Of a DNA stretch of 64,000 nt, positions 17,332 to 56,177 are shown one piece after another. Origin of the DNA: a virus (taxonomy: Duplodnaviria > Caudoviricetes); IMG/VR virus record IMGVR_UViG_3300031998_000039, positions 1 through 64,000 of that record. One strand, written 5' to 3'. A model generated the notes under the pieces. That model was not told the DNA's origin, made no database searches, and worked only from the letters and a program-made list of their open reading frames with translations. The translations under genes and the position numbers were made by a program. How positions within the stretch are numbered: the stretch's first letter is position 1; each line of letters starts with the position of its first letter.

Positions 17332-17364
17332 CCCCATAAAATAACCATTTTAGGAGGAAAGATG
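17329..17364 (+). repeat. Cassette-junction repeat (TAACCCCATAAAATAACCATTTTAGGAGGAAAGATG)
   Basis: Spans stop of the fibre gene to start of the next ORF; same motif as the 51.6-53.2 kb junctions. Confidence 0.85.
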
Positions 17365-17604
17365 TGGAAAGTTTCAACAGTAATATGTCTTAAATGCCTA
17401 AAGCGTTGGGTATCGGTTAGAGAACGGGAAGTTTTATTGACGCAATTAGAATGTCCACAATGTGGTGAAATAGGCTTTGCAATCGAAACAGGGGAAGAAG
17501 TCAACGAGAAACTTTGCGAATCCTGTAAGGCATTTAAAGATGGGAAGTGTAAATTAGGGTTATCCAATGATGAGGATTGCCCATATTTTGAATACAATGG
17601 ATAA
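17362..17604 (+). CDS. Zinc-ribbon protein
   Basis: CLKC, CPQC, CESC..C..C; SD AGGAGG. Confidence 0.8.
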   Translation: MWKVSTVICLKCLKRWVSVREREVLLTQLECPQCGEIGFAIETGEEVNEKLCESCKAFKDGKCKLGLSNDEDCPYFEYNG

Positions 17605-17613
17605 GGAGGATAT

Positions 17614-17703
17614 ATGGGCATAATTGTATTATTTATAGCATTTTTTGTATCGGGCTATATAGCAGGATATTGCACAGAGGATAAAGACAAAGCAACCCCA
17701 TAA
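17614..17703 (+). CDS. 29-aa single-TM peptide (MGIIVLFIAFFVSGYIAGYCTEDKDKATP)
   Basis: SD AAGGAGG; own translation; ends inside the junction repeat. Confidence 0.65.
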   Translation: MGIIVLFIAFFVSGYIAGYCTEDKDKATP

Positions 17704-17714
17704 AACCAAAATTT

Positions 17715-17831
17715 CATTCGGTGGCGGAATAGGTAGACGCTAATGGTGTACAACATGAGAAGAACGGTTTGTACAAGCCGTGAGGAGTGAAGTCTTTGTT
17801 TCATGTAAGGTGCAAATCCTTACCCGAATGA
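17715..17831 (+). ncRNA. Anticodon-less tRNA-like RNA, copy A
   Basis: Acceptor CATTCGG/CCGAATG, Leu-type D-arm GCGGAATAGGTAGACGC, T-arm GTAAGG-TGCAAAT-CCTTAC; large structured insert in place of an anticodon arm. Confidence 0.8.
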
Positions 17832-18516: not shown

Positions 18517-21500
18517 ATGGCACGTAAGAAAAACGAAGCGGTTATTCCGATTACTGTTGAAGCGACAGGAAAAGGCATAAATGAAGCCATGCAAGAGGCT
18601 GAGAAACTAGAAAAACAAACTAAAAAAACCAAAAAACAAACTAAAGAATTAAAAGATTCTTTGGCTCAAACTGGTGATGGCGCGAAACAGGCGGCTAAAG
18701 GAGTGCAAATTCTTGATGATCAAATGAAAGATTTTGCAGATAATCTTAAAGCTGTAAAAGAAGCCTTAGAAGATATTCATAAATTATTAGGTGAAAAAGG
18801 AATAACTTTTAATACTGAAAAAATACAAGAACAAATTGGGAAATTAAAAACAGAATTTGCCAGTTTAAATACAACTATAAATTCTGCATTTAAAGATGAT
18901 GCCAGCACGGACAATTGGATACGTAGATTGACCAAGGTTGCTGGTGATATAAGGAATATACGTTTTAGATTATTTGGTGATGACAAGGTTCCGCAAGAAA
19001 CCATTAAGGTAAAGTTAGCATCTATTGATAAAGATGATAACCCCGTAGCGGATATTGTTAATTCATTAAAAGAAATTAAGAAGTTCCAAATTCCATTAGA
19101 ACCAATTAATCAATTGTTAGCTAAACTTAATGAAATATCACGAGTAATAACTGATATTATGGTTGGATTACGGTTAGATAGTAAATTGCCAACTGCAGTT
19201 ATTAAAGATGAATTAACAGAAGTTAAAACCCAACTTGACGCTATTAATAAAGAAGCTAATAAATATGAAAAAACACTTTCTCGTCTTACAGGTATAACTA
19301 AAAACAAAAATGTTGATGAAAATGGAAAAGAAACTGTAACTGAAATATTTCATACTAATGCTTTAGTTAAAACAGCAAAACAGGTATATACTAAAGATAA
19401 ACCAGATCAAAAGGATATTCAAGCTCTTGAAAAAGAAATTATTAAATTATTGCAGTTTGGCGCCGATTTAGAAAATGTAAATGTTAAAGTTGGCAAATCA
19501 GCAACAAATTATTTTCAGATTGTAAAATCTATGTTTAAAAATTATTCTACCAGCATGATGCCTCAAGGCAGTGGTGGATTAAAAGATTATTTATCTGAAT
19601 TTTTTGATTATGCTGTTTCAAAAGATAGCGCAAATCCTTCTATTCTATTAAAAAATCAAAAAGTATACGAAGAAACATTTGCTAAGACATATAAAAATCT
19701 TTTAAAACAAAAGGAATATTATACTAAACAATTATCTTTTGCAGAAGCCAGAGACGCTACGCCTTCTGTTATTGCGTATGATGAAGATACAGTAAAAGCA
19801 ATGGCTAATGCGTTAGGCAATTTAGGAACTAATGTAACGCAAACCGCTAATCAGGTTTCTACAGTAACACAATTTAGTCAAGAACAATTAACGCAACTGG
19901 TTGGCGGATTATCTGCTATTGTAGAGTGGTTAGAAAAGATTAATACAGCGCTTGGTGAATTAGGTACTAAAACTGATATTTTTAATAATTTGCCGACTTT
20001 TAATATTAACGAGCAGGATCAAATAGATGATTTAGCACAAGCTGTTGCTGATAAAAACAAAGAATATTTAAAATTTTTAGAGCAAACTAATATAGTAACA
20101 AATTCAATTCTTGATAGTATTAAAAATATTACTATTGCAGCAAAAGATTTGGATTTATCTGATTTGTTTAAAAATTTTACAGGGACACAGCCTGCAAATG
20201 GCTCTGCTAATGATTTAATACAATCATTAAAAGACATTCAAGCTGCAGAAAAGAAAGTTGTAATTGGTAAAAAGAAATTTAGTGAACAGGCTGAAGAAAT
20301 TCGTAATCTTGCTCAAGCTTATGCAAAATATAAAGCTTTAGGTGGAACTGAATCTATCGCAGATATGACTAAAAAGCGAGGATTGGCTTCGCGTGTTGAA
20401 CAGGAATATATAAAATTGGCTTCTCAAAGTCAAGACATTTCTATACCTGTTAATATTGTTCCTAAGTTAACTGATGATTTTGATGCACAATTGCAAAAAT
20501 TAATTGATTTACAATCTTCAGATATAGATATAAACATTAAGCCTAACATATCAGATGTTGTAAATGATTTTATTAAACCAATTATGGTTGCTGTTGAAGG
20601 ACATCCTGTAGAAGTAGAGGTTGCTCCTATTGTAGATCAGTTTATTAAGGATATTCAGGCAGCATTAACAAAGTCATTGGATTTATCTTCAATAAAAGAA
20701 TTAACAGCGTCAATTGAGAATGCACTTAAGGCTGAACAAATTCCTGTACATTTAGATCCTGTTATTGATGACTTAATATCCAAAATAAAATCAACGTTAG
20801 CAAAAAGAGAGTTTGGTATTCAATTAAAACCTATTGTTAACAATTTTATACAAAATATTAAAGTTGCATTAGACAAGAAACAAGTTCCTGTTAATATTAA
20901 GCCTGTAGTAGGCAAAGAATTTAATGATGAATTAAAAAAGAAATTAGAAAATAAAAAGCCCGGAGTTAGTATTACTCCAAATAATATCAGCGAATTTGTT
21001 AAAAAGCTACAATCTTCTTTAGATAAAAAAGTTGTTAAAATAAAAGTTGAACCAATATTAAAAGATTTTATTAAACGGTGTAAAGAAATATTATCTGGCA
21101 AATATGTTCCAGTAAATTTTAAACCGCAAAATCCTATACATAATAATGGCAAACCTTTTAACAATCAAGAGATGCAGCAGTTGTTAGATGACGAAACGAC
21201 TAATAAATCTCAAAAAACAACATCAATGGTTAACGGACATATTGTTAGTGGCAAAGTCGTTACTGATGATAATGGTGTTAAAAGGACATATACCGTTGAC
21301 CAATTTGGTAATGAAAAAGTAACAGAACAAACTGTTAACAAAGAAAAACAAATTGAAAAAGAATATAAAGAAATTTTATCTAATTATAATCAGATTCTTC
21401 AATTAAAACGTCAAATGAAGAATCAAACAGAAAAAGAAGCTGAAGTAACAAAACAAATTATTAGTGAACTAACAGAAACTACAGAAGCGCAATATAATGC

Positions 21501-40981: not shown

Positions 40982-42169
40982 TTACACTTGATTCAGTTTA
41001 TTCTGAATTTCATAAATCTCTTCATTATTAAAATAGTAATGTTGTCTGGTGGTCAAGATGTTGGTGTGTCCCATTTGTTTGATAATAATCTTCTCACCAA
41101 CTCCTGCATCAAATAATTTGGTTGCATAGGTCTTGCGAATTTTATGGAATGATCTGAATGGTATCTGAACTAATCGGCATAAGGTTTCAATTTTATTAGA
41201 TAACCATGCAGCTTTAATACGCTGACCGCCACGTACAAACATCCACTCATATTCTCCGGTGTATTCTTTCAAGGCATCAAGAACTTGCTTTGCTTCATTA
41301 GAAAGGATTACACATCTTATTCCGTCACGTCCTTTGGTAAAGCCACGGACTTCCTCAATCCACTCTCCATGCTGACCTTTATACTTTATCTCTGTCCTCT
41401 GTACGATTAGAGTGTCATCTTGATAATCAGACCATTTCAGTGCTGATACCTCGCCAACTCTTAATCCCGTACAGAATGCAAGGGCTACACCCAATCCCAT
41501 CATGTCGGGATTAGCCTTAATATATTGCTTTATCTTATTCTCTTCTTCTTTAGTGAAGACTTGCTCTTCATCAAGTATAGTCTTACGTCTGAAGATTTTG
41601 CTTGACAACTGAAGTTCGGCAAGGAACAAGCTGATTCTCATATCAGTAAATCCATGTTTATGAGCATATATCATTGCCCCGCTTATCAGGATTCGCATGT
41701 TGCCCCAGTTCTTTGCGGTCAGATGCCCTTCAGCTATCTTCTGTTTGATGAATGTTTCAAGATAAAGTTCATCAATCTTTTTAACTTCTTTGTTTTCTAA
41801 CGCTGTCCCTTTGATATAGCGTTTATAGTCTGCCGTATATCTATCATAAGTCTGCTTTTGTATCTCCCCATACTTCAGCTTTTCATTAACCCATGAATCA
41901 AAGCATTCTTTAAAACTTATCTTGGGATCTTTCAGCATTTCGAAGATACCGTCCTCAAGAGCTGCCCTTGTACTCTTGGCGATTAATCTTCTTTTACCCG
42001 CTATCTCGACATAGGTCTTCCACCTACCATCGGATGCTAACCATATTTTTTGCTTGTCAAGAATCTGTTTTCTTTTCATATTTTCATATTCTTGCTGTAT
42101 GAGAGCAAGATTAATCATACCATTTTCTTGAGCAAATTGCAATAGGTTATCGCATTTTATAAGTATCAC
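40982..42169 (-). CDS. int: Tyrosine recombinase (phage integrase)
   Basis: TGLRVGE, HKIRKT, MGH, Y catalytic residues. Confidence 0.95.
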   Translation of the reverse strand: MILIKCDNLLQFAQENGMINLALIQQEYENMKRKQILDKQKIWLASDGRWKTYVEIAGKRRLIAKSTRAALEDGIFEMLKDPKISFKECFDSWVNEKLKYGEIQKQTYDRYTADYKRYIKGTALENKEVKKIDELYLETFIKQKIAEGHLTAKNWGNMRILISGAMIYAHKHGFTDMRISLFLAELQLSSKIFRRKTILDEEQVFTKEEENKIKQYIKANPDMMGLGVALAFCTGLRVGEVSALKWSDYQDDTLIVQRTEIKYKGQHGEWIEEVRGFTKGRDGIRCVILSNEAKQVLDALKEYTGEYEWMFVRGGQRIKAAWLSNKIETLCRLVQIPFRSFHKIRKTYATKLFDAGVGEKIIIKQMGHTNILTTRQHYYFNNEEIYEIQNKLNQV

Positions 42170-43614: not shown

Positions 43615-44091
43615 TCAACTAAGTTTTTCCGCATATTGATTATCTGATGCAAGGGTTACTCCCAACAGTTCATCATATTTTGAAGGGCGGTTTAAAAGAA
43701 AGCGTCCGAACTTTACGATGATGTTGTCGAATTTTTTAAGCAGTTCAAGTTTATCTAATACCTCGTCTTTATTATATCCTGTGTAGATTACTATTGTATC
43801 ATTACAATGATATTTATTTCGTAAGATATCTATAAATTGTAGTAATTCTTCAAAGGTATCAAGGGGTTCAAGTCCCTGAAAACAAATTGCTTTAGCACTA
43901 CTTTTAAGATAACGTTTAATTAATTTATTTGTATCTATAATAATATCTGGTTGTTTTGCAAGTTCACTATTTTGACAAACTTGTTGTCCATTACATATAT
44001 CACACTTAAAAGTACATCTTGGCATAGCAATTATCATTGAATGATCTTTATAATTAATAAAATCAACATCAATTACATCTTTTACGAGCAT
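43615..44091 (-). CDS. nrdG: Anaerobic ribonucleotide reductase activating protein (radical SAM)
   Basis: C.FKC..CQN, GLEP, IYTGY, LASDNQ; linked to nrdD. Confidence 0.85.
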   Translation of the reverse strand: MLVKDVIDVDFINYKDHSMIIAMPRCTFKCDICNGQQVCQNSELAKQPDIIIDTNKLIKRYLKSSAKAICFQGLEPLDTFEELLQFIDILRNKYHCNDTIVIYTGYNKDEVLDKLELLKKFDNIIVKFGRFLLNRPSKYDELLGVTLASDNQYAEKLS

Positions 44092-44996
44092 TGAAGTAAC
44101 TCTCCCTCTAATGAATATTCAACAAAATGATTTTTATTATCAGTTGGTGAATGATAATTTAGTTGTACAGTTTTAGTTTCAGGATTATAATTTGGGGAAT
44201 ATTCTCCATAATATTTAATTTCTCCTTTTAATCTTGCATGAACTGCTTCTTCAAAAGTATCATAACTTCCCAACCATTTTGTTTTATATTGATACATTAA
44301 TCTAGCCATCCATTTGTTAAGTTTAGGACTTTCTTTTGCTACGCCAGTTACGCCAGAAGTGTTTGTATGCTTCTTTCCCATATTCATAGCATTTTGATGA
44401 GATGTAACGGGGCGTAAATTTACTTTTCTATTATCCAAACGGTTATGATTAATATGATCATACTTATTGTCAAAATCATTAAATATAACATTAGCAATGT
44501 CTATTCCTGTATTATGATCTATTGCTTTAGTTACACAATAACCATAACTGACATACCATTTATAATCTTTTATTTTATCAATGTCTTCAATGTCAATAAT
44601 GCTTTCTACTTTAGGTTCTTGTTTTACATTTTTAATTTTTATTATGGCGTAATCATCTACAACCACAATTTCGTTGCGATCATATATGGTGCTTTCAAGA
44701 ATTTTACCATGTCGTATCATTTGTAGAAAATGTCTTTTGCAATAAGGAATGCCATGTAAGCGATGTATGCCTATATTATCACCACATATCGTACAAGTTA
44801 ATGTTTCAATTTGAGGATCATATTTTTTATGATGTTGGTCGCAATAATATTTGTATAATCCATTTTCACGAATAAATGCACGTAGTTTTGATGTTGAACA
44901 CCCATACAAAACACCCATTTCTTTTAAAGTTTTAGTTTGAGGGATTATGCTTTTAACATAATCCCTATCTAATTTAATTCTTGTTAAGTGTTCCAT
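44082..44996 (-). CDS. HNH homing endonuclease with AP2-like domain
   Basis: DHINHNRLDNRKVNLR..N..N; NTSGVTGV..W.A..LGSY.TFEEA. Confidence 0.85.
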   Translation of the reverse strand: MEHLTRIKLDRDYVKSIIPQTKTLKEMGVLYGCSTSKLRAFIRENGLYKYYCDQHHKKYDPQIETLTCTICGDNIGIHRLHGIPYCKRHFLQMIRHGKILESTIYDRNEIVVVDDYAIIKIKNVKQEPKVESIIDIEDIDKIKDYKWYVSYGYCVTKAIDHNTGIDIANVIFNDFDNKYDHINHNRLDNRKVNLRPVTSHQNAMNMGKKHTNTSGVTGVAKESPKLNKWMARLMYQYKTKWLGSYDTFEEAVHARLKGEIKYYGEYSPNYNPETKTVQLNYHSPTDNKNHFVEYSLEGELLQCS

Positions 44997-46907
44997 TTAA
45001 TCTACCTCGTACCACATTCTGTTGTTATATTCCTGATAGCGTTCTTTAGAATACGCAGATGTTGGCACAAGATATCCAACGATACGGCTAACCTCATCGC
45101 TTTTATATTCACCGCATATAGGACAAGTATCACCAAAAAATGTATGAGAATGTTTACATATTGACAACTTAGGATTAAACGCAAAATAAATAACACCTTT
45201 ATTTGCCATTTCATTTAATATATTCCATGAGGTTTCCTCAGTAAGTTGTGCGCCTTCAAGTGAGATATGAAGAATTTGTCCTCCGCCAGCCTTTTTGTCA
45301 AGCACTGCAGAAAGTCTTGTTCTTTCATCAATACTGCATTTTGACATAAGACTTACCCATTGATTCGAATATATAAAATCTTCATTACGTCCATAGATAA
45401 TATTATCTTTCTTACAAAGCTTAACATTAGCCGATTCTGCAGGAATAATTTCCAGTGAAACATTATAATCATATCCTGATTCATCCTGTAGTTTATTTAC
45501 AGTATCCATAATTTTTATTGCGAACTGAAGTCCTTCATCGGTATAAGATGCTGCACCAAATTCATCAACTGTAGTTAAACCCATTTCACGTAACGCTTCA
45601 AACATTGCAGTTAATCCATTAGTGGTTGTTTGTTTATCTAAATTAATTACTTGATACGAATAATTTGGTAACAAATGCTTCTCAATATTACGCTGAATAT
45701 TATGTCTAACTCTATCAAGCACCATCATATTAAGCCTAACTCTATCAGTTAAAATTTTAATAAACTTATCTTGATTGCCTTTAGATTCTAATGCGATACG
45801 CATTAAGTTAATTGTGCTTACTTTAACCGATCCAATTTCAATCAAACTGCCACCAATACTAGATTGAAAAGCTTTTTGCTTTGATAAATCGTTTAACATT
45901 CTACAACAACTTGCTAAATTTGTTACCGAATCTCCAATATAGAAATTGCTGTCATACCATTGAAGATTCTGCTTGTTACACCAACGAGCAAATTCTTCAT
46001 CCACAAATTTACCATTCTGGAATAATAAAGCATATGTATATACAGGAAATGTCATAAATACCTGTTTACGAATCTCGCATTCTGTCTCCATATATGCTTT
46101 TTCATGCTCAATAATTTCATCTACATAATCAATGACATATGTACCGTCAGGGAAAATACGATCACCAAATAATTCAGTAATATAATTTCTATCCATAATT
46201 ATTAGATTGGTATAAGGAGATTGCGTAATTCTTCCATGTATTTGGTTAACTTCAAAAATAAATTGTTGAAATAACTGTCTTCTATAATACTCAGGATCTT
46301 TTAAGTAGTATCCTTGTTCAACATCCTTTTTCCAAAAATAAAATGTGTAAATGAAAAAACTGGGCAAGGCACACGCTCCAGCCGTCCTATTGGATACCCA
46401 ACAAATAAATTCTCTTAAATGAGCCATAAATGTTGTTAAATGATGGGCTGGTTGTGTATTAGTTTTGGGCAAGAAATACAAACCTTTTTCTGCTAAATTT
46501 TGCAATTCATAAGCATAACAGTAACTTAAAAAGCTTGCAGAATGAGCGTCGTGCATATATAACGCTCCAGAAAACTCATCTTCCAACCATTTGTTAGCAA
46601 TTTTTTTACCATAAGCTTTTTTCATCTCATAATAAATTTTATTAAAACTCAAAAGTTTACAATGGGGTTTACACATTTCGTCAAGCAAAGTACGCACATC
46701 TTTTGTTGATACATTAGCGCTTGAATCGATTGTGGCATCCGCAACTGCATTTTCTTCATCTACAAAATTATCAATAAATTCTGTATAATCTAACTGCTCT
46801 TTTGAAAAACCATTAATTCTGGTTATTTCTTCCCCATATTTTTCAATAAGTTTTTTAAGTTGTCGTTCAAAATCATTATCAAGATTAATGTTTATTTCCA
46901 TATTCAT
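44997..46907 (-). CDS. nrdD: Class III anaerobic ribonucleoside-triphosphate reductase
   Basis: YCYAY, SCCRM, TINL.RIA, PAES, zinc ribbon, RIVGY glycyl-radical motif. Confidence 0.93.
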   Translation of the reverse strand: MNMEININLDNDFERQLKKLIEKYGEEITRINGFSKEQLDYTEFIDNFVDEENAVADATIDSSANVSTKDVRTLLDEMCKPHCKLLSFNKIYYEMKKAYGKKIANKWLEDEFSGALYMHDAHSASFLSYCYAYELQNLAEKGLYFLPKTNTQPAHHLTTFMAHLREFICWVSNRTAGACALPSFFIYTFYFWKKDVEQGYYLKDPEYYRRQLFQQFIFEVNQIHGRITQSPYTNLIIMDRNYITELFGDRIFPDGTYVIDYVDEIIEHEKAYMETECEIRKQVFMTFPVYTYALLFQNGKFVDEEFARWCNKQNLQWYDSNFYIGDSVTNLASCCRMLNDLSKQKAFQSSIGGSLIEIGSVKVSTINLMRIALESKGNQDKFIKILTDRVRLNMMVLDRVRHNIQRNIEKHLLPNYSYQVINLDKQTTTNGLTAMFEALREMGLTTVDEFGAASYTDEGLQFAIKIMDTVNKLQDESGYDYNVSLEIIPAESANVKLCKKDNIIYGRNEDFIYSNQWVSLMSKCSIDERTRLSAVLDKKAGGGQILHISLEGAQLTEETSWNILNEMANKGVIYFAFNPKLSICKHSHTFFGDTCPICGEYKSDEVSRIVGYLVPTSAYSKERYQEYNNRMWYEVD

Positions 46908-48868: not shown

Positions 48869-49792
48869 TTATTCTCCTAATACAATTTTCTTTGCCCAGT
48901 TCATTGCTTGTGAACTTACTGCCTTGCCAAAGTACTGACTACTAATTACATCTGCTATCAGTTCGGGTTCTTCTTTGATAACATCATCGTAGATGCGTTT
49001 CGGAAGGTTACGGGCTACAACAGCCATATCCTTGGGAGTTATCTGCTCTGGTAATAAACCTTCATCTATTTGCTTATTTATATCCTTACGAACTCTTGCT
49101 TCGGTGACAACTTCTGCAGCTACCTCTTCAGCATGTGCTTTTTCGAGCAGATGTTCAGGATCAAGCACTTTCTTCTCATGGTTATGTTGCTTTGTTTCCG
49201 AAAAACTATCGTTGATAACTTTAAGATAAAAAGGATTTCTGCAATCAGGATCATTAAGTTTTGTCATGTTCTTACAAACACAACCTTCGATAGCATTACC
49301 ATACATAGGCTGATTAAAGAATGACTTAACATGCTCCCATGATACAAATGGGCCGTCATAATAGGTATGTACATAAATCAGTCCATGTGATTCCGCATAC
49401 GCTTTAACTTCATCTTGAGGTAGCCACTGTTCTGTATCTTTATCAAATATGTCATATACATACCACTTGTTATATGCATCTTTGTCATATTTAACCGTAT
49501 GCGGTACTAACCACTCGCCATATAAACAACGATTGCCTAAATCACGGAACTTTTCTTTATCAAGCGTCTGTACGAAATTCCAAAAACCACGCAAATTGTT
49601 AGTCATATTGAGTTCATTCTTACGGCTAAAAGCTTTAAGTTCACCGTCTTCCCAAGCAATCTGGGCATTACAACCGTCCACTTTTGTCTGGATAACGACT
49701 CTATCTCCCACCTCAAACGCTCCAGTATTAGCTGCAACCATTCCGTCTTCACTGTTCTCTTTAACTCTGACTATATCCATAAAGTGCTTCAT
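48869..49792 (-). CDS. ATP-dependent RNA ligase (Rnl2-like)
   Basis: KVDGCN adenylation motif, SRK, YGEW, YDI, EGCV.KN. Confidence 0.8.
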   Translation of the reverse strand: MKHFMDIVRVKENSEDGMVAANTGAFEVGDRVVIQTKVDGCNAQIAWEDGELKAFSRKNELNMTNNLRGFWNFVQTLDKEKFRDLGNRCLYGEWLVPHTVKYDKDAYNKWYVYDIFDKDTEQWLPQDEVKAYAESHGLIYVHTYYDGPFVSWEHVKSFFNQPMYGNAIEGCVCKNMTKLNDPDCRNPFYLKVINDSFSETKQHNHEKKVLDPEHLLEKAHAEEVAAEVVTEARVRKDINKQIDEGLLPEQITPKDMAVVARNLPKRIYDDVIKEEPELIADVISSQYFGKAVSSQAMNWAKKIVLGE

Positions 49793-49826: not shown

Positions 49827-50498
49827 TTATGAGGCTGTTTCCAAAGGTAATAATGGCAATATATGATCTTGCTCATATATAAATGGTTTAATATCTGTTT
49901 TAGTTATATCATTCAAGTAATTTCTTAACCATTCATAATCAGAATTATGTTCTTTATAATATGCATCAATTCTTTTATATTTTAAGTTAAAATATTGACA
50001 TAACCTTTTTAAAGAAGTACGAAAACCATTGTATACAAACATCACATTACTTCTTTTATTATTTGCTTGCTCATATATATCAACAAAACGACAATTTTCT
50101 GGACAATAATTTTTTTCGTTATTTATACGATCGATAGTTAAAGAATTATTATAACCATGTTCAAATGCCCAGTTTTCAAACGTTTTATACGATTGCTCCC
50201 ATTCGGGACATATGTTAATTATATGATTACCTTGGTGATAAACTTTATAACTGTCAGTATTTGGATTTTTACATCGAGTTTTAATATTTATCCAAATAGC
50301 ATGTAATCGTTGATTTAATACTTCGTCTTGACACCTACACGGATTGCTGCCACGATAATAATGACTGCGCCACATAGTATAATGTTTGTTGCAAAATTTA
50401 CATTTTACTTCAATCAAAACATTCTTACCCACTCGTTCTATTGATTGAATATATTGTGCGCCATGCTGATTTTCATTCTTAATTTTACCTCGACTCAT
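49827..50498 (-). CDS. HNH-type homing endonuclease
   Basis: W.NIKTRC.NP..I.IC.EW..F.NW..LTIDRINN..Y.PENCR...QANN. Confidence 0.8.
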   Translation of the reverse strand: MSRGKIKNENQHGAQYIQSIERVGKNVLIEVKCKFCNKHYTMWRSHYYRGSNPCRCQDEVLNQRLHAIWINIKTRCKNPNTDSYKVYHQGNHIINICPEWEQSYKTFENWAFEHGYNNSLTIDRINNEKNYCPENCRFVDIYEQANNKRSNVMFVYNGFRTSLKRLCQYFNLKYKRIDAYYKEHNSDYEWLRNYLNDITKTDIKPFIYEQDHILPLLPLETAS

Positions 50499-50937
50499 TT
50501 TTCTCCCGTTCTTCAAGATGTTTAATAAGTTTTTCGCAATACCATCGACTCTTTAAAACGTCTTGTAACCCATTCTTCTTTTTGTAACGACAGATATATT
50601 TCAGCACATTAGCTACACAAACCGCTTCAATTCCAGTAAGGTCTTCCGTAAATGCTTCAATATAATCAATCACTTCCAACCCATTCTTGCTTTTGTAATG
50701 CCCGGGATTTACCGCAGGATCTTTGCTTTCATATATAGATTTCTTTGCTAACTTCTCTGCTCTAATCTTTGCAAGTTCCTCTTTACTCTTTGGATGCTTG
50801 CCCTTATAGTTAGGTGAGATTTCTGTCAAATCTGTATCAGGAATAGGATTCTTCAAAATCTGTCCTGTCAACGAAACAATTTCGTCAGCTTTTGTTACTG
50901 TCGGTATAACGGGTGCATAAGGATCAATATGTTCCAT
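50485..50937 (-). CDS. DUF3310-family protein
   Basis: VNPGHY..EVIDYI..NVLKY..RY.KKNG.QD..K..WY. Confidence 0.75.
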   Translation of the reverse strand: MEHIDPYAPVIPTVTKADEIVSLTGQILKNPIPDTDLTEISPNYKGKHPKSKEELAKIRAEKLAKKSIYESKDPAVNPGHYKSKNGLEVIDYIEAFTEDLTGIEAVCVANVLKYICRYKKKNGLQDVLKSRWYCEKLIKHLEEREKNESR

Positions 50938-51193
50938 TTTTTATTCTCCTTTCAATATCATTTATTATAACAAGCAGTATGATATATGGACATTTATCCA
51001 TACATACTTTTTTACCTGCTTTTTGTAAATGATTATAAAACCATAATGCTCCTTTTTCATTATCAAAAACAGTTACAATCGGTTCTTCATCATGCAAAAA
51101 ATATTCAGTTACAGTGTAAACACAATCCTTTATTATATTTGTCATTTGTTTACTCGTTTCTTGCTTTTCAATATTTTTTAAAATTTCACCCAT
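50924..51193 (-). CDS. Hypothetical protein
   Basis: SD AAGGAG; 89-aa ORF. Confidence 0.6.
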   Translation of the reverse strand: MGEILKNIEKQETSKQMTNIIKDCVYTVTEYFLHDEEPIVTVFDNEKGALWFYNHLQKAGKKVCMDKCPYIILLVIINDIERRIKNGTY

Positions 51194-51212
51194 ATTTATT
51201 CTCCTTTAAATA

Positions 51213-51464
51213 TCATTTATCTTTAAACTTTTCTAATTCTTCTTTAGTAGGTGTTAATCCTCTTGCAAGCATATTAGAAATTATATTAACTTCTGTGTAT
51301 TGGTTGCATTCTGGACAACGAATAACATCAATTTTTGTTCGATCCCAATTTATATCCATTACATCAAGATAAGTAATATCTTTCTTTATATATCCTATCT
51401 CAGCTCCACATTTTTCACAAACAGTAACTTTATAAGCATTACCATGTTTTAATATAACAGACAT
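51213..51464 (-). CDS. Zinc-ribbon protein
   Basis: CEKC..CPEC; SD AAGGAG. Confidence 0.75.
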   Translation of the reverse strand: MSVILKHGNAYKVTVCEKCGAEIGYIKKDITYLDVMDINWDRTKIDVIRCPECNQYTEVNIISNMLARGLTPTKEELEKFKDK

Positions 51465-51484
51465 ATTATTCTCCTTTCAAAATA

Positions 51485-51601
51485 TCATTCGGGTAAGGAT
51501 TTGCACCTTACATAAAACAAAGACTTCACTCCTCACGGCTTGTACCAACCGTTCTTCTCATGTTGTACACCATTAGCGTCTACCTATTCCGCCACCGAAT
51601 G
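51485..51601 (-). ncRNA. Anticodon-less tRNA-like RNA, copy B
   Basis: Two substitutions relative to 17715-17831; one turns a G-C pair into G-U. Confidence 0.8.
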
Positions 51602-51620
51602 AAATTTTGGTTTTATTGGG

Positions 51621-51719
51621 TTACTTTATGTTTTTCCTAAAGTCATCTTTCATATCAACATACAACCAACTAAAAGCACTAATTACTGTAATCAACGTTA
51701 ATACTTTTAAAAAAATCAT
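51621..51719 (-). CDS. 32-aa single-TM peptide (MIFLKVLTLITVISAFSWLYVDMKDDFRKNIK)
   Basis: SD AGGAGG; own translation; the stop codon is the TAA of the junction repeat. Confidence 0.7.
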   Translation of the reverse strand: MIFLKVLTLITVISAFSWLYVDMKDDFRKNIK

Positions 51720-51745
51720 CTTTCCTCCTAAAATTATCACATAAA

Positions 51746-51964
51746 TTAAGACCAAATATGAGAATTAACTATATCATCAACTGTTAAATTCATTAATTCA
51801 ATTTGAATATTATCAAGTTCATCAACAATATTTGTATGCCCAGATATTTGAGCAAGTTCTTTAACAAATTCGATTGTTGTTATAATTGCAGGACGGCAAT
51901 ATGGTTCTATAAATGATGAATGTTCATATTTTTTAACAACTTTTTTTAATTGTTCTGCTGTCAT
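51746..51964 (-). CDS. Hypothetical protein (72 aa)
   Basis: SD AGGAGG before ATG 51964. Confidence 0.7.
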   Translation of the reverse strand: MTAEQLKKVVKKYEHSSFIEPYCRPAIITTIEFVKELAQISGHTNIVDELDNIQIELMNLTVDDIVNSHIWS

Positions 51965-51984
51965 CTTTCCTCCTAAAATGGTTA

Positions 51985-52139
51985 TCATTCGGGTTAGGAT
52001 TTGCACCTAACATGATATATATACAGGAATATATATCCAGCGATGGAGCTACCAATCTTACCTGCGTCTACTATTACTCGTGGACTAAAAGTCTTTTTGC
52101 CGAGTTTTACCATAGCCATGTCTATTCCGCCACCGAATG
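51985..52139 (-). ncRNA. Anticodon-less tRNA-like RNA, copy C (different payload, 50-nt D-loop insertion)
   Basis: Same acceptor and D-stem; T-stem GTTAGG/CCTAAC is a compensatory change versus GTAAGG/CCTTAC. Confidence 0.8.
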
Positions 52140-52158
52140 AAATTTTGGTTTTATGGGG

Positions 52159-52350
52159 TTATTGTAATAAATCCTTCCGTTTCAAGTTTTCTTCAATCAT
52201 AACCCACTTATTACCATCAAACTTATATAAATCCCCATATATAGTCAAAATGGAATTACAAAGGTTTGTATCAACTCTCGTTCCATTTGTTGCTTTGAGG
52301 ATTTCTATAAAATCTTCTTTAGGCATTGCCCTTTGTTTGCTAAAATCCAT
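52159..52350 (-). CDS. Hypothetical protein
   Basis: Bounded by junction repeats. Confidence 0.7.
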   Translation of the reverse strand: MDFSKQRAMPKEDFIEILKATNGTRVDTNLCNSILTIYGDLYKFDGNKWVMIEENLKRKDLLQ

Positions 52351-52377
52351 CTTTCCTCCTAAAATGGTTATATGGGG

Positions 52378-52728
52378 TTATTTGTCTGTCCATGACTTGA
52401 ATGCACATATCTTTTCTACTAATCCACTAGTATCTCCATCGAATGTAATGGCTCTATCATCAACATAAACAAGGGCAGGTGGTTTTACGTCTGAAATTCT
52501 GTCAAATTTAATGTTGTATTTTTCAAGCCATCCTTTCATAGCAATCTTACCCGTAGGATAGACACTTCTTGTTGATACTATTACAACCTCATAACCTTTT
52601 TCACGCAAATTGTCTATAGTTTCTTTAATTCCTTGCACTGGTTCATCAGATATTATATCGTGACCTTGCCATCCACTTTTATAACTATGAATCACACCAT
52701 CAAAATCAAATACGATTGTCTTTTTCAT
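52378..52728 (-). CDS. HAD-family phosphatase
   Basis: FDFDGV, IVSTR, KP, YVDDRA. Confidence 0.8.
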   Translation of the reverse strand: MKKTIVFDFDGVIHSYKSGWQGHDIISDEPVQGIKETIDNLREKGYEVVIVSTRSVYPTGKIAMKGWLEKYNIKFDRISDVKPPALVYVDDRAITFDGDTSGLVEKICAFKSWTDK

Positions 52729-52754
52729 CTTTCTTCTCCTTTGGTTTTATTGGG

Positions 52755-52979
52755 TTAGCCCTTAAGGTAAAGAGAATAATCGGACATTTCATCAAAACCA
52801 CATCCGTTATTTGTAGGCTTTATCTCTTTTATTTCTTCATTAAGTTGATTTTCGCAAAATTCAACCAACCACTTTTTCAAGCCTTTAATTTCATTAGGTT
52901 GAAAATATGAAAAACTCCCATCTGGCCTAATATGCTTTATGATACAAGCAAGTATTTCTTTTACATTCTCGTCTATCAT
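52755..52979 (-). CDS. Hypothetical protein
   Basis: Bounded by junction repeats. Confidence 0.7.
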   Translation of the reverse strand: MIDENVKEILACIIKHIRPDGSFSYFQPNEIKGLKKWLVEFCENQLNEEIKEIKPTNNGCGFDEMSDYSLYLKG

Positions 52980-53012
52980 AATCTTCCCCTCCTAAATGGT
53001 TATTTTATGGGG

Positions 53013-53141
53013 TTACTCAGTATCGCTATCATCTGGACTCCAACCGTTCATTGTAAATGCCCATGCAACAACAAAAATCCAAAAGAATGCCACAGCAACT
53101 ATGCCACCTAATGCCAAAAATAATTGTAATACAATATTCAT
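53013..53141 (-). CDS. 42-aa single-TM peptide
   Basis: SD AGGAGG before ATG 53141; hydrophobic core and acidic tail. Confidence 0.7.
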   Translation of the reverse strand: MNIVLQLFLALGGIVAVAFFWIFVVAWAFTMNGWSPDDSDTE

Positions 53142-53223
53142 ATTTCCTCCTAAAATGGTTATTGAAAATTTCTGAGGGTGACCGAAGTCAGCCCTCAGTA
53201 TAAACTTAAAAGGTTTCAATACT

Positions 53224-53400
53224 CTAAAATGGTTCTTTTAATTCTGCCTCACATTTAGGACATATTTTTGGACAATCATCGTATTGATACCAGTAGCCAC
53301 ACTCTGAACAACAGTACCCATAAACATTTTGATTATTAAAAAATCCACCATTTATCCAATGTGGTATCCATTTTCCGATTTTTTTATTCTTCTCCGTCAT
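53224..53400 (-). CDS. Zinc-ribbon protein (58 aa)
   Basis: Own translation MTEKNKKIGKWI..CSECG..CPKCEAEL. Confidence 0.7.
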   Translation of the reverse strand: MTEKNKKIGKWIPHWINGGFFNNQNVYGYCCSECGYWYQYDDCPKICPKCEAELKEPF

Positions 53401-53749
53401 CTTCTACAAACTCCCATGCAATATTCTTGTATAGCCACTGTCTTGACATATCGCAAGCATCATATCTACTCATACTTTCAATATGGGGTTTAATTGTTCC
53501 ACTAATCTCCCAACCAATAATAGTTGCAGGAATTGCAGTGCATTGCATAACAATAAGATATTTGGTTGTTTGAATTACTTCTGCTTCATATACCACTTTA
53601 CAATGATGTTCTCTGCCATTGATATCATAATCATGCGTATTTAATTCATCACTGGCGTTAGCATAAAAAAACTTATCCCCAACTTTAACATGAAGCAGTT
53701 CGTTAGGTGTCAGTGCTTGCATACGTTTAAAGTCCACATAACAGTTCAT
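53384..53749 (-). CDS. Hypothetical protein
   Basis: SD AAGGAG; 121-aa ORF. Confidence 0.65.
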   Translation of the reverse strand: MNCYVDFKRMQALTPNELLHVKVGDKFFYANASDELNTHDYDINGREHHCKVVYEAEVIQTTKYLIVMQCTAIPATIIGWEISGTIKPHIESMSRYDACDMSRQWLYKNIAWEFVEDDGEE

Positions 53750-53760
53750 TCTTCTTCTCC

Positions 53761-54057
53761 TTATTCAGTTTTATTGATACATCCAGCTATAATTGATTTG
53801 CACTCTGTTGGATATTTATATTGGAATGTTGACCAAACATATACTTGTTCATCTGGCTTAATCTCACCGCTTGCATCGTAATACTTATTATGAATACGTG
53901 TTATAAAGTGATTCATAACCGGCATATAACAAATGATCCCGCCGAATCTTTCTTCAAGTATTTTTGCAAACCAATAACAATATCCGAATAAGAAAAGTGT
54001 TTTAGCTGAACCAAAACCTTCAATAAATTTTAATATCTCACTCTCAGTCATTTTCAT
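53761..54057 (-). CDS. Hypothetical protein (G.CY.FA..H...YD..G, papain-like triad pattern)
   Basis: Motif pattern in the ORF. Confidence 0.6.
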   Translation of the reverse strand: MKMTESEILKFIEGFGSAKTLFLFGYCYWFAKILEERFGGIICYMPVMNHFITRIHNKYYDASGEIKPDEQVYVWSTFQYKYPTECKSIIAGCINKTE

Positions 54058-54277
54058 TTTCCGCCCTTAATATTTTTAATGCTTCAACTGCATCGAATCG
54101 TGTTGTAAATACATACTTATCAAGCATATCGAATTTAAATAGGTGCGCCTGTTTTGTTTTTTCATCAACCCCAACCGCATAATCTTCGCCAACAGTACGG
54201 ATAACCAATTCAATTACTTCATAGGTATTACAACTTGGAACTACATCACATAAGAAAACCCTGTCATCCTTTAACAT
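54044..54277 (-). CDS. Hypothetical protein
   Basis: SD GGAGG. Confidence 0.65.
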   Translation of the reverse strand: MLKDDRVFLCDVVPSCNTYEVIELVIRTVGEDYAVGVDEKTKQAHLFKFDMLDKYVFTTRFDAVEALKILRAENEND

Positions 54278-54498
54278 CTTTTTCCTCCCATAATTTATAT
54301 CGTGTTGCTTTAAAAGAAAAGGCTTTGCAAATTCAACCGAATGTATACAAACAGCATTTACAAAGCCTTTTTAATTGTGAGTTTTAAATCATCACTGGAT
54401 TTGCTGTGAGTGTATCTGGGGGAATATTCATTCCCATCCCGAATAAATAATCTACTCCCCATCGTCGTGCTGTGCCTGAGCATGATGTTGTAGGATAA

Positions 54499-54570
54499 CA
54501 GAGGCTGAAGGTAACGCTCCTTCTTCGTCTGGTTCAAAGCCAGAAATGTCCACTTGTCCACTAAGCCCCT
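54499..54570 (-). tRNA. tRNA-Gln(TTG), atypical T-loop
   Basis: AGGGGCT/AGCCTCT acceptor; TCTGG-CTTTGAA-CCAGA; T-arm GAAGG-AGCGTTA-CCTTC. Confidence 0.7.
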
Positions 54571-54680
54571 ATATTTTATGAGTTGCACATCTAAACCTAA
54601 TGGTTGTTAGCCAATGAGGAACACACTTCGATAGTTTTTTGAGATTAATTTGCTTTAAGTTTCGGCGCATTAAGCCGAAA

Positions 54681-54748
54681 TGGACGGAAGAGGAGTCGAA
54701 CCTCTAACTACTTGACACAAGTTGTTCTTCCAATTGAACTATCCGCCC
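54681..54748 (-). tRNA. tRNA-like gene with collapsed anticodon loop (pseudo-tRNA)
   Basis: Intact acceptor, D and T arms; anticodon arm only ACTTG-TGT-CAAGT (13 nt). Confidence 0.6.
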
Positions 54749-54795
54749 TACCAAAACATGGCAAGAAAAGTTTTTGCTTTTACATATTTAGGGGA

Positions 54796-54869
54796 CGATC
54801 ATGACGGGACTTGAACCCGTGACCTCCAACGTGACAGACTGGCGTTCTAACCAACTGAACTACATGACC
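54796..54869 (-). tRNA. tRNA-Asp(GTC)
   Basis: Full cloverleaf, loop CT-GTC-AC, G73. Confidence 0.9.
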
Positions 54870-54872
54870 AAA

Positions 54873-54945
54873 CGGCTCCAGCAGGACTTGAACCTACGAC
54901 ACCCTGATTAACAGTCAGATGCTCTACCAACTGAGCTATGGAGCC
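54873..54945 (-). tRNA. tRNA-Asn(GTT)
   Basis: Full cloverleaf, loop CT-GTT-AA, G73. Confidence 0.92.
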
Positions 54946-55012
54946 ATATCTGCTTCTAACCTTTAATAGGATTAAAAGCAGATTTTAAGAAAGCACATGA
55001 TATGAAAAATAC

Positions 55013-55083
55013 AGCCTTCAGACGGATTCGAACCGCCATAGCTTGATTACAGGTCAAGAGTACTACCGTTGTACGATGAAGGC
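55013..55083 (-). tRNA. tRNA-Thr(TGT) with C33
   Basis: Cloverleaf GCCTTCA/TGAAGGC, loop CC-TGT-AA. Confidence 0.75.
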
Positions 55084-55136
55084 TTGACCATTACTGGTCA
55101 TATATCAAAAGAGGTTTCAAATGGGGTATCACGTAA

Positions 55137-55208
55137 TTGCAGAAGCGGGATTCGAACCCGCGTCTCAGCCTTATGAGGGCTGCGAGGCATCCACTCCTCT
55201 ATTCTGCG
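55137..55208 (-). tRNA. tRNA-Met(CAT), initiator-type acceptor
   Basis: C1xA72 mismatch, A11-U24, loop CT-CAT-AA; anticodon stem CAGCC/GGCTG lacks GGG/CCC. Confidence 0.85.
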
Positions 55209-55359
55209 ATAACGCTCGATCTTAACCAGCCTACATCGAGCATAGGTTTTTTGTATGTATTATCGGGGAGGATAGTACATACATGGGAGGGCTTGCTATC
55301 CAAACAAGCCAAGCAATAGGTGTCCCCCGTGTCATATTAAACACTCCTATTGCTTAAAA

Positions 55360-55416
55360 CGGGCGGGCGAGATTTGAACCTCGCCTACATTGCTGTATGG
55401 GGATAGTACCACGCCC
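55360..55416 (-). ncRNA. Minimal tRNA-like element (acceptor plus T-arm, no D-arm)
   Basis: GGGCG/CGCCC; GGCGAG-GTTCAAAT-CTCGCC; TACA-GCAA-TGTA hairpin. Confidence 0.45.
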
Positions 55417-55461
55417 TAATGAAAGGAAAACTGTATCATGACAAGACACTATGAAATGTCG

Positions 55462-55995
55462 TCAATACTCATCTGTACGCCAATCGAAATTGCGAAATCT
55501 TGCTTCAGGATATACAAAATTAATTATTTCTGCATCTGTATAACCGTTACGCTCCATTTCTTCAGCCAAAGCTTTACGCCAATGATTATGCATTGGACGA
55601 TGTATTCCCTCGATTGTAGCTTTTTCACCTTGTTCTTTAACACGTTCAATTATACGTTTATCGTTCCAATCACTTAAACGACTTGTGTCAAAAGGAATCT
55701 TCTTACGTTTGCAACGTCTATATTCTCTTAAGATATCGTTTAACTGCCATGTTAACATATCGGTTTCTTCATAATCTATCCAGCTACCTGATAAATAGGC
55801 TTTATAAACCCCATCATGACAGAATGATAAATACGGCACATAAGGATAATAAGGTATCAAATCTCTTGGCTCATTCAATTTAATTGGATAATTTCTTTCA
55901 TCCTTAGTTATGTATAACTGAATTTTATCTATATCATATCTGCCTATCATAACTACGCTATCATACAAATCACATTTGCCGCTAAATTGACTCAT
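55462..55995 (-). CDS. Hypothetical phage protein
   Basis: MSQFSGKCDLYD..DLIPYYPY; 177-aa ORF. Confidence 0.75.
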   Translation of the reverse strand: MSQFSGKCDLYDSVVMIGRYDIDKIQLYITKDERNYPIKLNEPRDLIPYYPYVPYLSFCHDGVYKAYLSGSWIDYEETDMLTWQLNDILREYRRCKRKKIPFDTSRLSDWNDKRIIERVKEQGEKATIEGIHRPMHNHWRKALAEEMERNGYTDAEIINFVYPEARFRNFDWRTDEY

Positions 55996-56177
55996 ATCTT
56001 TACCTCGTTGGGTATTGTAACCCTTTGATCATCAGCAATACTTGGAAGCAGATGAAATAGATTCTTCAATGCATTAACTGCAGCTTCTTTTGTTGCCGCT
56101 TCAATTTTGTGTCCTTCAGAATCTTCTGCTGTCCAAGGGAATCGCTTGTTATTTGTTCTATAAGTTTTTATTTCCAT
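55992..56177 (-). CDS. Small hypothetical protein
   Basis: First ORF after the promoter; SD AAGGA. Confidence 0.6.
   Translation of the reverse strand: MEIKTYRTNNKRFPWTAEDSEGHKIEAATKEAAVNALKNLFHLLPSIADDQRVTIPNEVKI

Follow-up and report, generated by a model that had tools for sequence, protein, structure and literature searches.

Why should a row of unrelated small genes in a phage genome be joined by variants of one short sequence? The question is raised by the viral record IMGVR_UViG_3300031998_000039 (Duplodnaviria; Caudoviricetes), of whose 98.8 kb the first 64 kb were analyzed (the window); bovine gut metagenome contigs contain 93 to 95% of the window's sampled words. The main array lies on the minus strand at positions 53161 to 51485, between a tRNA cluster and an RNA ligase gene, and holds six open reading frames (ORFs) and two tRNA-like RNAs in the 5'-to-3' order two-hairpin element, ORFs A, B, C, and D, RNA1, ORFs E and F, RNA2, and a zinc-ribbon gene. 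The six ORFs represent six different families with no mutual similarity, and the junctions are variants of TAACCC(C/A)ATAAAA followed by TAACCATTTTAGGAGGAAAGATG. A second array, on the plus strand at 17329 to 17831 and directly 3' of a 618-amino-acid (aa) tail-fiber gene, consists of a full junction, an 80-aa zinc-ribbon ORF, a 29-aa ORF, CCAAAATT, and a third RNA (RNA3). Sequence comparisons suggest that the junction is probably a conserved, promoter-less stop/ribosome-binding-site (RBS) linker that marks the borders of cassettes and is a site of recombination.

The original prediction for this locus had described six unrelated small ORFs and two RNAs joined by variants of one motif, and that description is confirmed; the content of the array is as claimed, but RNA2 (51602 to 51485) lies just beyond the start of the range that had been given for it. 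Both halves of the motif are far above chance. At up to one mismatch the left half, TAACCCMATAWAA, has eight matches versus 0.98 expected, a count that none of 100 shuffles reached, and the right half, at up to two mismatches, has four matches versus 0.06 expected. Six exact copies of the left half are present in the whole 98.8-kb record, all of them inside the two arrays. The leader TTTTAGGAGGAAAGATG has five copies, again in the arrays only, and GGAGG occurs 38 times in the window; because this leader is confined to the arrays, it is not simply the phage's usual RBS.

The junctions can be read as the meeting points of modular units. An ORF cassette would consist of a leader (TAACCATTTTAGGAGGAAAG-ATG, comprising an A/U-rich spacer, a consensus Shine-Dalgarno sequence [SD], and the start codon), the ORF itself, and a trailer, TAACCC(C/A)ATAAAA(TAACC), in which the final TAACC is optional and TAA stops are present in up to three frames. 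Two adjoining ORF cassettes would then yield a full junction, whereas an RNA or hairpin cassette would be preceded by the trailer plus CCAAAATT and followed by a bare leader; this scheme fits all 51 classified junctions. The distance from stop to start is about 31 nucleotides (nt), with a consensus SD. Within TAACCCCATAAAATAACC, TAA stands at positions 1, 9, and 14, one per reading frame, a property that the original prediction did not mention. Among the nonredundant junctions, the upstream ORF stops at the first TAA in 33 of 52 and at the second (..ACC CCA TAA) in 15 of 52; proteins of the latter kind, including the 29-aa protein of the second array, have a motif-encoded -TP or -TQ at the C terminus. 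The third TAA serves as the stop in G002 (G and L numbers denote contigs of other phages), and 32 of the 52 junctions have a stop in every frame within 24 nt. Since the motif is retained in whichever frame it is read, selection acts on its nucleotide sequence and not on a peptide.

Conservation of the linker contrasts with that of its surroundings. Full junctions are identical at 28 or more of 29 positions in 16 of 18 cases, and synonymous divergence in shared genes beside linkers is 20 to 65%. The cassette ORFs have ratios of nonsynonymous to synonymous change (pN/pS) of 0.04 to 0.25; they are real genes under purifying selection. Near identity of the linker despite such divergence points to selection on function, and it counts in favor of an explanation in which the linker is regulatory only and breakpoints at gene borders are surviving illegitimate recombinants. 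The linker could then be a leader for translation initiation, a place where RNA is processed, or the target of a binding protein; in the last case the 6-4-6 palindrome TAAAAT-AACC-ATTTTA could, for example, be an operator of the stoperator kind. The linker is also always on the coding strand and contains both a stop codon and an SD, and about 42% of the sharp homology endpoints inside arrays lie away from junctions. Stoperators of the cluster A mycobacteriophages, which occur genome-wide and bind the immunity repressor, are likewise short asymmetric repeats at stop/start junctions, oriented with transcription; the linker differs from them in being confined to two accessory arrays, as its exact left halves illustrate, and in having no known binding protein. 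Several observations fit poorly with regulation as the sole role. The leader is used in the arrays and not by the phage's other genes, so it is not a general translation signal, and the palindrome and the hairpin described below are lost in many variants. The linker is present, too, in G001 (IMGVR_UViG_3300028887_000193), in which no other DNA similarity to the window was detected in the compared region, and its occurrence in otherwise dissimilar phages is more easily explained by travel with cassettes. We consider the regulatory-only explanation unlikely on balance; regulation and recombination are in any case not mutually exclusive.

Related phages provide direct comparisons of cassette order and content. 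The junction recurs in about 12 IMG/VR contigs and 10 more metagenome contigs; in the 43- to 55-kb relatives it is located between the tail-fiber gene and the holin/endolysin genes. Positions 52161 to 51462 of the window correspond to positions 440 to 1137 of L222 with 98% identity over 700 nt, a block that spans RNA1, ORF E, ORF F, and RNA2. The block is limited by the T of TAACCCC at one end and by the ATG of the next gene at the other, with unrelated genes beyond both limits. In L222 and L224, which are short contigs from different samples and are both 98% identical to the window over these 700 nt, 43-aa and 86-aa ORFs stand upstream of the block where the window has ORFs C and D, and the gene downstream of the block also differs from that of the window. 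The same downstream alternative was found in a bovine-gut run of another study (X5), with a loose end at 51466, and a rumen contig from a further run (X6) has only RNA1 in common with the window, with breaks at 51983 and 52160. Joints resembling deletions (52160>52350 in X6 and 52161>52324 in another run, X1) would remove ORF D precisely, but their sides are only 21 to 29 nt long and they were not counted as evidence. A search for related loci that started from the 150-aa gene lying downstream of the array retrieved only three distant relatives, and whole-locus synteny of the early region was therefore compared with L222 and L224 alone.

Cassettes of the window also recur elsewhere, and they move between the two kinds of locus. 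The ORF B cassette is 91% identical at the DNA level to one located 3' of the tail-fiber gene in G003 and G004, and the homology stops in junctions on both sides; G002 and G007 match only the C-terminal 25 codons of ORF B and its junction. A homolog of ORF C is found inside the fiber/lysis array of the metagenome contig L211, and the zinc-ribbon ORF and 29-aa ORF of the window's fiber array recur in G002 at 92% identity, bounded by junctions. Among 43 sharp homology endpoints in the arrays, 19 fall in a junction in both partners, 6 in a junction in one partner, and 18 in a junction in neither; junctions make up 14.4% of the array sequence, for a binomial P value of about 2e-6, which is nominal because the pairs are not independent. 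The ORFs of the 21 nonredundant arrays number 41 and fall into 29 families; of the 10 families that have several members, 7 occur in at least two neighbor contexts, so that gene order is not fixed. The comparison with related phages that the original prediction had proposed thus came out positive, with variable order and with breakpoints that appear tied to the motif, though not exclusively, and the L222/L224 and ORF B comparisons, the endpoints, and the arrays together support exchangeable single-gene and single-RNA cassettes. Outside these relatives, megablast of positions 50000 to 56000 against the INPHARED phages gave no match, and the exact 26-nt junction core had no match in 185k species genomes. 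A degenerate 22-nt junction pattern gave 30 single, chance-like matches, at most one of which is a possible prophage (in an Oscillospiraceae metagenome-assembled genome), and no host was identified.

These patterns suggest a mechanism in which the 29 to 37 nt of near-perfect identity would supply the homology arms at which ordinary homologous recombination or template switching takes place. The partners in an exchange would be coinfecting phages or the two arrays within a single genome, and phage or host recombination functions would carry it out; other conserved patches, such as the RNA ends, would also be usable. Every product would be viable and expressible inside the resident operon, because the upstream gene is terminated in any frame and the downstream gene receives a strong RBS, and the outcome would be two arrays, both hypervariable, filled with ORFans and tRNA-like RNAs. 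The breakpoints themselves vary, falling at the ATG of the next gene, inside relatives of ORF B, and just past the conserved RNA 5' end (in G002 and G005); breaks at the last two places are expected if any conserved patch can serve. That some 40% of the sharp breakpoints lie off the motif is likewise the pattern of homology-driven exchange and not of a fixed crossover site.

Several considerations weigh against recombination at the linker. The endpoint statistics rest on nonindependent pairs. Exchange is deduced indirectly, from the comparison of assembled metagenome contigs. Breakpoints at gene borders can also come from selection on viable illegitimate recombinants, with the linker not being the substrate; in lambdoid phages, mosaic joints that lie at gene borders through selection are the classical view. 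A patch of 29 to 37 nt is short for RecA-type exchange, though adequate for the single-strand-annealing proteins of phages; in the window no such protein was identified, only an exonuclease. Finally, the operon transcription of the arrays that this reading presupposes is itself a prediction.

The original prediction had further proposed that the junction folds so as to hide the SD, with bulged A residues, and thereby couples translation of neighboring genes. The canonical junction does adopt this fold (-5.3 kcal/mol, with the SD paired and two bulged A residues), but the fold is not above chance (z = -0.29; 66 of 200 shuffles fold equally well) and is missing or replaced in variant junctions. 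Built-in translational coupling through such a hairpin is therefore unsupported. A consensus promoter scan of positions 50500 to 55500 found no minus-strand promoter-like site at any junction (12 sites in total versus 20.6 expected), and a terminator scan found no terminator-like site at the junctions. A reading of CATAAAATAA as a T4-late-type promoter was dropped, since the motif is not found at other late genes.

Cassettes might instead be moved as circles by an integron-like recombinase that recognizes the TAACC junction, perhaps as a folded single strand. The arrays resemble integrons in that they consist of promoter-less single-gene cassettes, arranged head to tail in one orientation and of very high diversity. 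Both halves of the motif start with TAACC, forms resembling a deletion between TAACC copies exist (the right half alone), the canonical junction has its small hairpin with two bulged A residues, and candidate genes are at hand, a tyrosine recombinase gene directly after an array of G006 (IMGVR_UViG_3300028887_000100) and an integrase gene of the window at 40982 to 42169. The latter, however, is of an ordinary phage type and lies 10 kb from the array, and G001 and G002, which bear arrays and are 100% complete by CheckV, have no match to PF00589, a search that did not extend to serine recombinases or other classes. No integron integrase, attI/Pc, or 57- to 141-nt imperfect palindrome of the attC type is present; the junction of 29 to 37 nt lacks attC-like R and L boxes, its fold is no better than that of shuffled sequences, and its only symmetry, TAAAAT-AACC-ATTTTA, is lost in many variants. 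Crossover points, moreover, vary among the ATG, ORF interiors, and the interior of the RNA 5' end. The earlier statement that the array is not a classical integron thus holds, and the dedicated, recombinase-based acquisition system that had been proposed alongside it is not supported, given the complete relatives that lack a tyrosine recombinase and the share of sharp breakpoints off the motif. We regard a site-specific system of this kind as very improbable.

All of the evidence for exchange comes from metagenome contigs, and repeated junctions of 30 to 37 nt together with shared RNA ends might in principle have caused assemblers to join unrelated phages. Logan contigs do break exactly at these repeats, and odd duplicated cassettes stand at the contig ends of G001 and G006. 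The same alternative arrangements nevertheless turned up more than once, in samples and assemblies that are independent of each other (G003 and G004; L222, L224, and run X5), and single Logan contigs bridge most adjacencies of the array (51587 to 52151, 52192 to 52943, and 52914 to 53800). Repeats of this size are also shorter than the usual large k-mers and read lengths. An assembly artifact is accordingly the explanation to which we give the least credence. The duplicated cassettes have different neighbors within each contig: a 54-aa ORF in G001 (98% identity over 201 nt, at the contig ends) and a 46-aa ORF in G006 (18968 to 19268 and 81606 to 81758), in which the gene for a 344-aa tyrosine recombinase comes directly after one array. 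They could reflect real duplication or collapsed population variants.

Recombination between linkers has its closest known counterpart in the promoter-early stem-loop (PeSL) cassettes of T4-type phages (Arbiol et al. 2010, PMC2839356; Comeau et al. 2014, PMC4122927). Like PeSLs, the linker is a conserved intergenic repeat that begins at the stop codon of one gene and extends through the SD and start of the next, clusters in hyperplastic, ORFan-rich regions, and coincides with differences among close relatives, and in both cases recombination between repeats is proposed to keep expression signals intact; PeSLs are further associated with minicircles that arise through recombination between neighboring repeats. 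The PeSL, however, is about 100 bp long and carries a strong sigma-70 promoter and a stem-loop terminator, making each cassette its own transcription unit, whereas the linker has 29 to 37 nt and neither signal. Both defining parts of the PeSL are thus missing, and the linker cassettes would depend on the operon in which they land. The analogy to PeSLs that had been drawn for this locus therefore holds for the recombination logic and fails for the junction itself. The linker also differs in its multiframe TAA stops, in flanking RNA genes, and in its occurrence in bovine rumen phages with structural modules of the long, noncontractile-tail type, including at the tail-fiber/lysis boundary.

Accessory genes between tail-fiber and lysis genes also recall the morons of lambdoid and other temperate phages, for which short conserved boundary sequences at gene borders have reportedly been proposed as recombination linkers. 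Morons carry their own promoter and terminator, and the linker is far more uniform than the boundary sequences described to date; we know of no report of boundary sequences that close all three frames.

Read 5' to 3' on the minus strand, the main array opens with the two-hairpin element (53172 to 53220), which reads ATTGAAACC..GTTTATAC, then CTGAGGG-CTGAC-TTCG-GTCAC-CCCTCAG, and then AAATTTT. A right half alone, TAACCATTTTAGGAGGAAATATG (53139 to 53161; core TAACCATTTTAGGAGG at 53161 to 53146), gives ORF A (53013 to 53141) its 5' leader, SD, and start codon; ORF A encodes a 42-aa hydrophobic peptide for which Pfam and PHROG searches gave no family. A full junction in the variant form TAACCCCATAAAATAACCATTTAGGAGGGGAAGATTATG (52977 to 53015) leads to ORF B (52755 to 52979; 74 aa, family F5/c0, pN/pS 0.25), which also has no Pfam or PHROG family and for which an Atlas look-up gave no function. 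The left half with an AAAGGAG RBS, TAACCCAATAAAACCAAAGGAGAAGAAAGATG (52726 to 52757), precedes ORF C (52378 to 52728; pN/pS 0.20, with synonymous divergence [pS] of 0.65), which encodes a 116-aa phosphatase-like protein of the HAD family, similar to the PNKP phosphatase; its Pfam matches all lie under the gathering scores (Hydrolase_6, 1.6e-5; Hydrolase, 1.9e-5; HAD_PNKP, 1.2e-4), and it matches phrog_1238 at 2.6e-18. A short full junction with a 3-nt deletion, TAACCCCATATAACCATTTTAGGAGGAAAGATG (52348 to 52380), separates it from ORF D (52159 to 52350), a 63-aa ORFan in whose place the near-identical relatives L222 and L224 have other genes.

The left half plus the CCAAAATT linker (52141 to 52161), which coincides exactly with the start of the 98% block of L222, introduces RNA1 (51985 to 52140). 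RNA1 is followed by the right half alone, TAACCATTTTAGGAGGAAAGATG (51962 to 51984), and by ORF E (51746 to 51964), a 72-aa ORFan whose protein is identical in L222. A right-half-like RBS that lacks the left half, TAATTTATGTGATAATTTTAGGAGGAAAGATG (51717 to 51748), precedes ORF F (51621 to 51719), which encodes a 32-aa membrane peptide. The left half plus CCAAAATT recurs ahead of RNA2 (51603 to 51623), and RNA2 (51485 to 51602) is followed by an ordinary RBS and the ATG of the 83-aa zinc-ribbon gene (51462 to 51484), at which the L222 block stops.

What, then, are the RNA cassettes? The RNAs of the window behave as cassettes, each with the composition trailer, CCAAAATT, RNA, and leader. RNA1 and RNA2 begin with TCATTCGGTGGCGGAATAG and end with GGTGCAAATCCTwACCCGAATGA, and both resemble tRNA-Leu without an anticodon arm. 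RNA2 is 95.5% identical to RNA3 (17714 to 17831), the two belonging to a 155-nt duplicate common to both arrays of the window, and RNA1, like its copy in G001, has an extra D-loop insert of about 50 nt. Neither ARAGORN nor Rfam calls RNA1 or RNA2, and Rfam searches at gathering thresholds and at E values up to 10 returned nothing credible for the RNAs or the junctions. They are not tRNAs by the standard of a cloverleaf with an anticodon arm recognized by ARAGORN or Rfam RF00005: the D-arm and T-arm are like those of tRNA-Leu, but a variable insert occupies the middle.

A pattern scan of IMG/VR retrieved about 35 phage loci with the architecture of RNA1 and RNA2, namely, a closing stem of 7 to 12 bp, a tRNA-Leu-type D-arm, a variable insert of 40 to 140 nt that sometimes contains nested tRNA-like pieces, CATG, and a 6-bp stem whose loop is GGTGCAAATCC. 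Across 30 distinct members, both the closing stem and the T stem covary: the former runs a further 3.4 bp past the conserved TTCGG/CCGAA, compared with a mean of 0.87 and a maximum of 1.6 in 1,000 shuffles of the partners, and 3.93 of the four outer T-stem positions are paired, compared with 2.97 for shuffled partners. RNA1 to RNA3 thus belong to a large and uncatalogued family of phage RNAs that resemble tRNA-Leu but have no anticodon. Family members in L016, L017, and L054 have nested tRNA-like T-arms, and the nested piece in L017 looks by eye like a whole tRNA-Thr; the conserved RNA ends alone are matched by very many rumen contigs. In G002 (about 39157, minus strand) and G005 (about 38174, plus strand), the left half and CCAAAATT are followed by the first 14 to 20 nt or so of the RNA (TCATTCGGTGGCG..) and then by unrelated sequence; these truncated starts look like traces left behind by recombination within the conserved 5' end of the RNA. 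Complementarity between RNA inserts and junctions (UUUUAUG, UUGGU) was dropped as a candidate signal because it is too short and differs between RNA2 and RNA3.

The two-hairpin element is a further recurrent unit. In the form ATTGAAACC..GGTTTATAC followed by a GC-rich stem, it borders arrays in four phages (the window, L216 at about 787, L221 at about 4636, and L096 at about 1176), and at the array ends of G001, L221, and L096 its second stem varies in a compensatory manner (CTGAGGG/CCCTCAG versus CCGAGGG/CCCTCGG). On its 5' side, ..ATAAAACCAAAATTT.. is found in two phages and the diverged ATAAAACAGAAATTT in a third, neither being present in the window, and on its 3' side lies GAAATTT (GAAATTTT in two phages). 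It is not in Rfam and is not called a terminator by a simple scan; it could be a terminator-like or RNA-stability cassette.

At the second array, cassette-like variation extends into the fiber gene itself. Positions 16878 to 17328 (plus strand) encode the last 100 or so codons of the 618-aa protein and are cassette-like: a block of about 140 nt (16878 to 17018) is 72 to 86% conserved in about 12 relatives, the following stretch of about 310 nt up to the linker was matched in none of the relatives, and the linker comes after the stop, at 17329. The linker may act as the downstream homology arm in the swapping of receptor-binding tips.

The first 40.6 kb or so of the window carry structural genes, on the plus strand. 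The minus strand beyond encodes the integrase, nucleotide-metabolism genes, two HNH endonucleases, the RNA ligase, the tRNA cluster, and a DNA polymerase. One HNH gene (44082 to 44996, minus strand) lies between the small (43615 to 44091) and large (44997 to 46907) genes of an anaerobic ribonucleotide reductase, and the second (49827 to 50516) lies about 700 nt downstream of the array. The RNA ligase (48869 to 49792), the PNKP-phosphatase-like HAD gene, the tRNA cluster (54681 to 55209), and the tRNA-like RNAs fall within 7 kb on the minus strand, a grouping that resembles a tRNA-repair or anti-anticodon-nuclease theme.

A bolder possibility is that the linker and the tRNA-like RNAs form a dedicated cassette-exchange device and not passive homology. 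Either an unrecognized enzyme or a step at the RNA level might act at TAACC, the latter for example through copy-back after processing at the tRNA-like elements, and the multiframe stop/RBS design might have evolved for portability. Such a device is very improbable; if real, it would be the phage equivalent of an integron, with translation signals as its building blocks.

The linker system is a promoter-less variant of linker-mediated modular shuffling, so far found only in uncultured rumen phages. Some 30 nt would provide for the expression of any insert, through any-frame termination and a strong RBS, as well as the homology for exchange, a design that resembles the three-frame-stop and RBS junctions of synthetic operons. 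Accessory cargo of this kind often has antidefense or host-takeover functions, and searches with the motif can harvest accessory genes and tRNA-like RNAs from rumen viromes. Because the linker also bounds the variable tip of the tail fiber, it may contribute to the swapping of host-range modules. The arrays would represent a sequence-defined case of how phages outside the T4 group maintain a rapidly changing stock of accessory genes and small RNAs.

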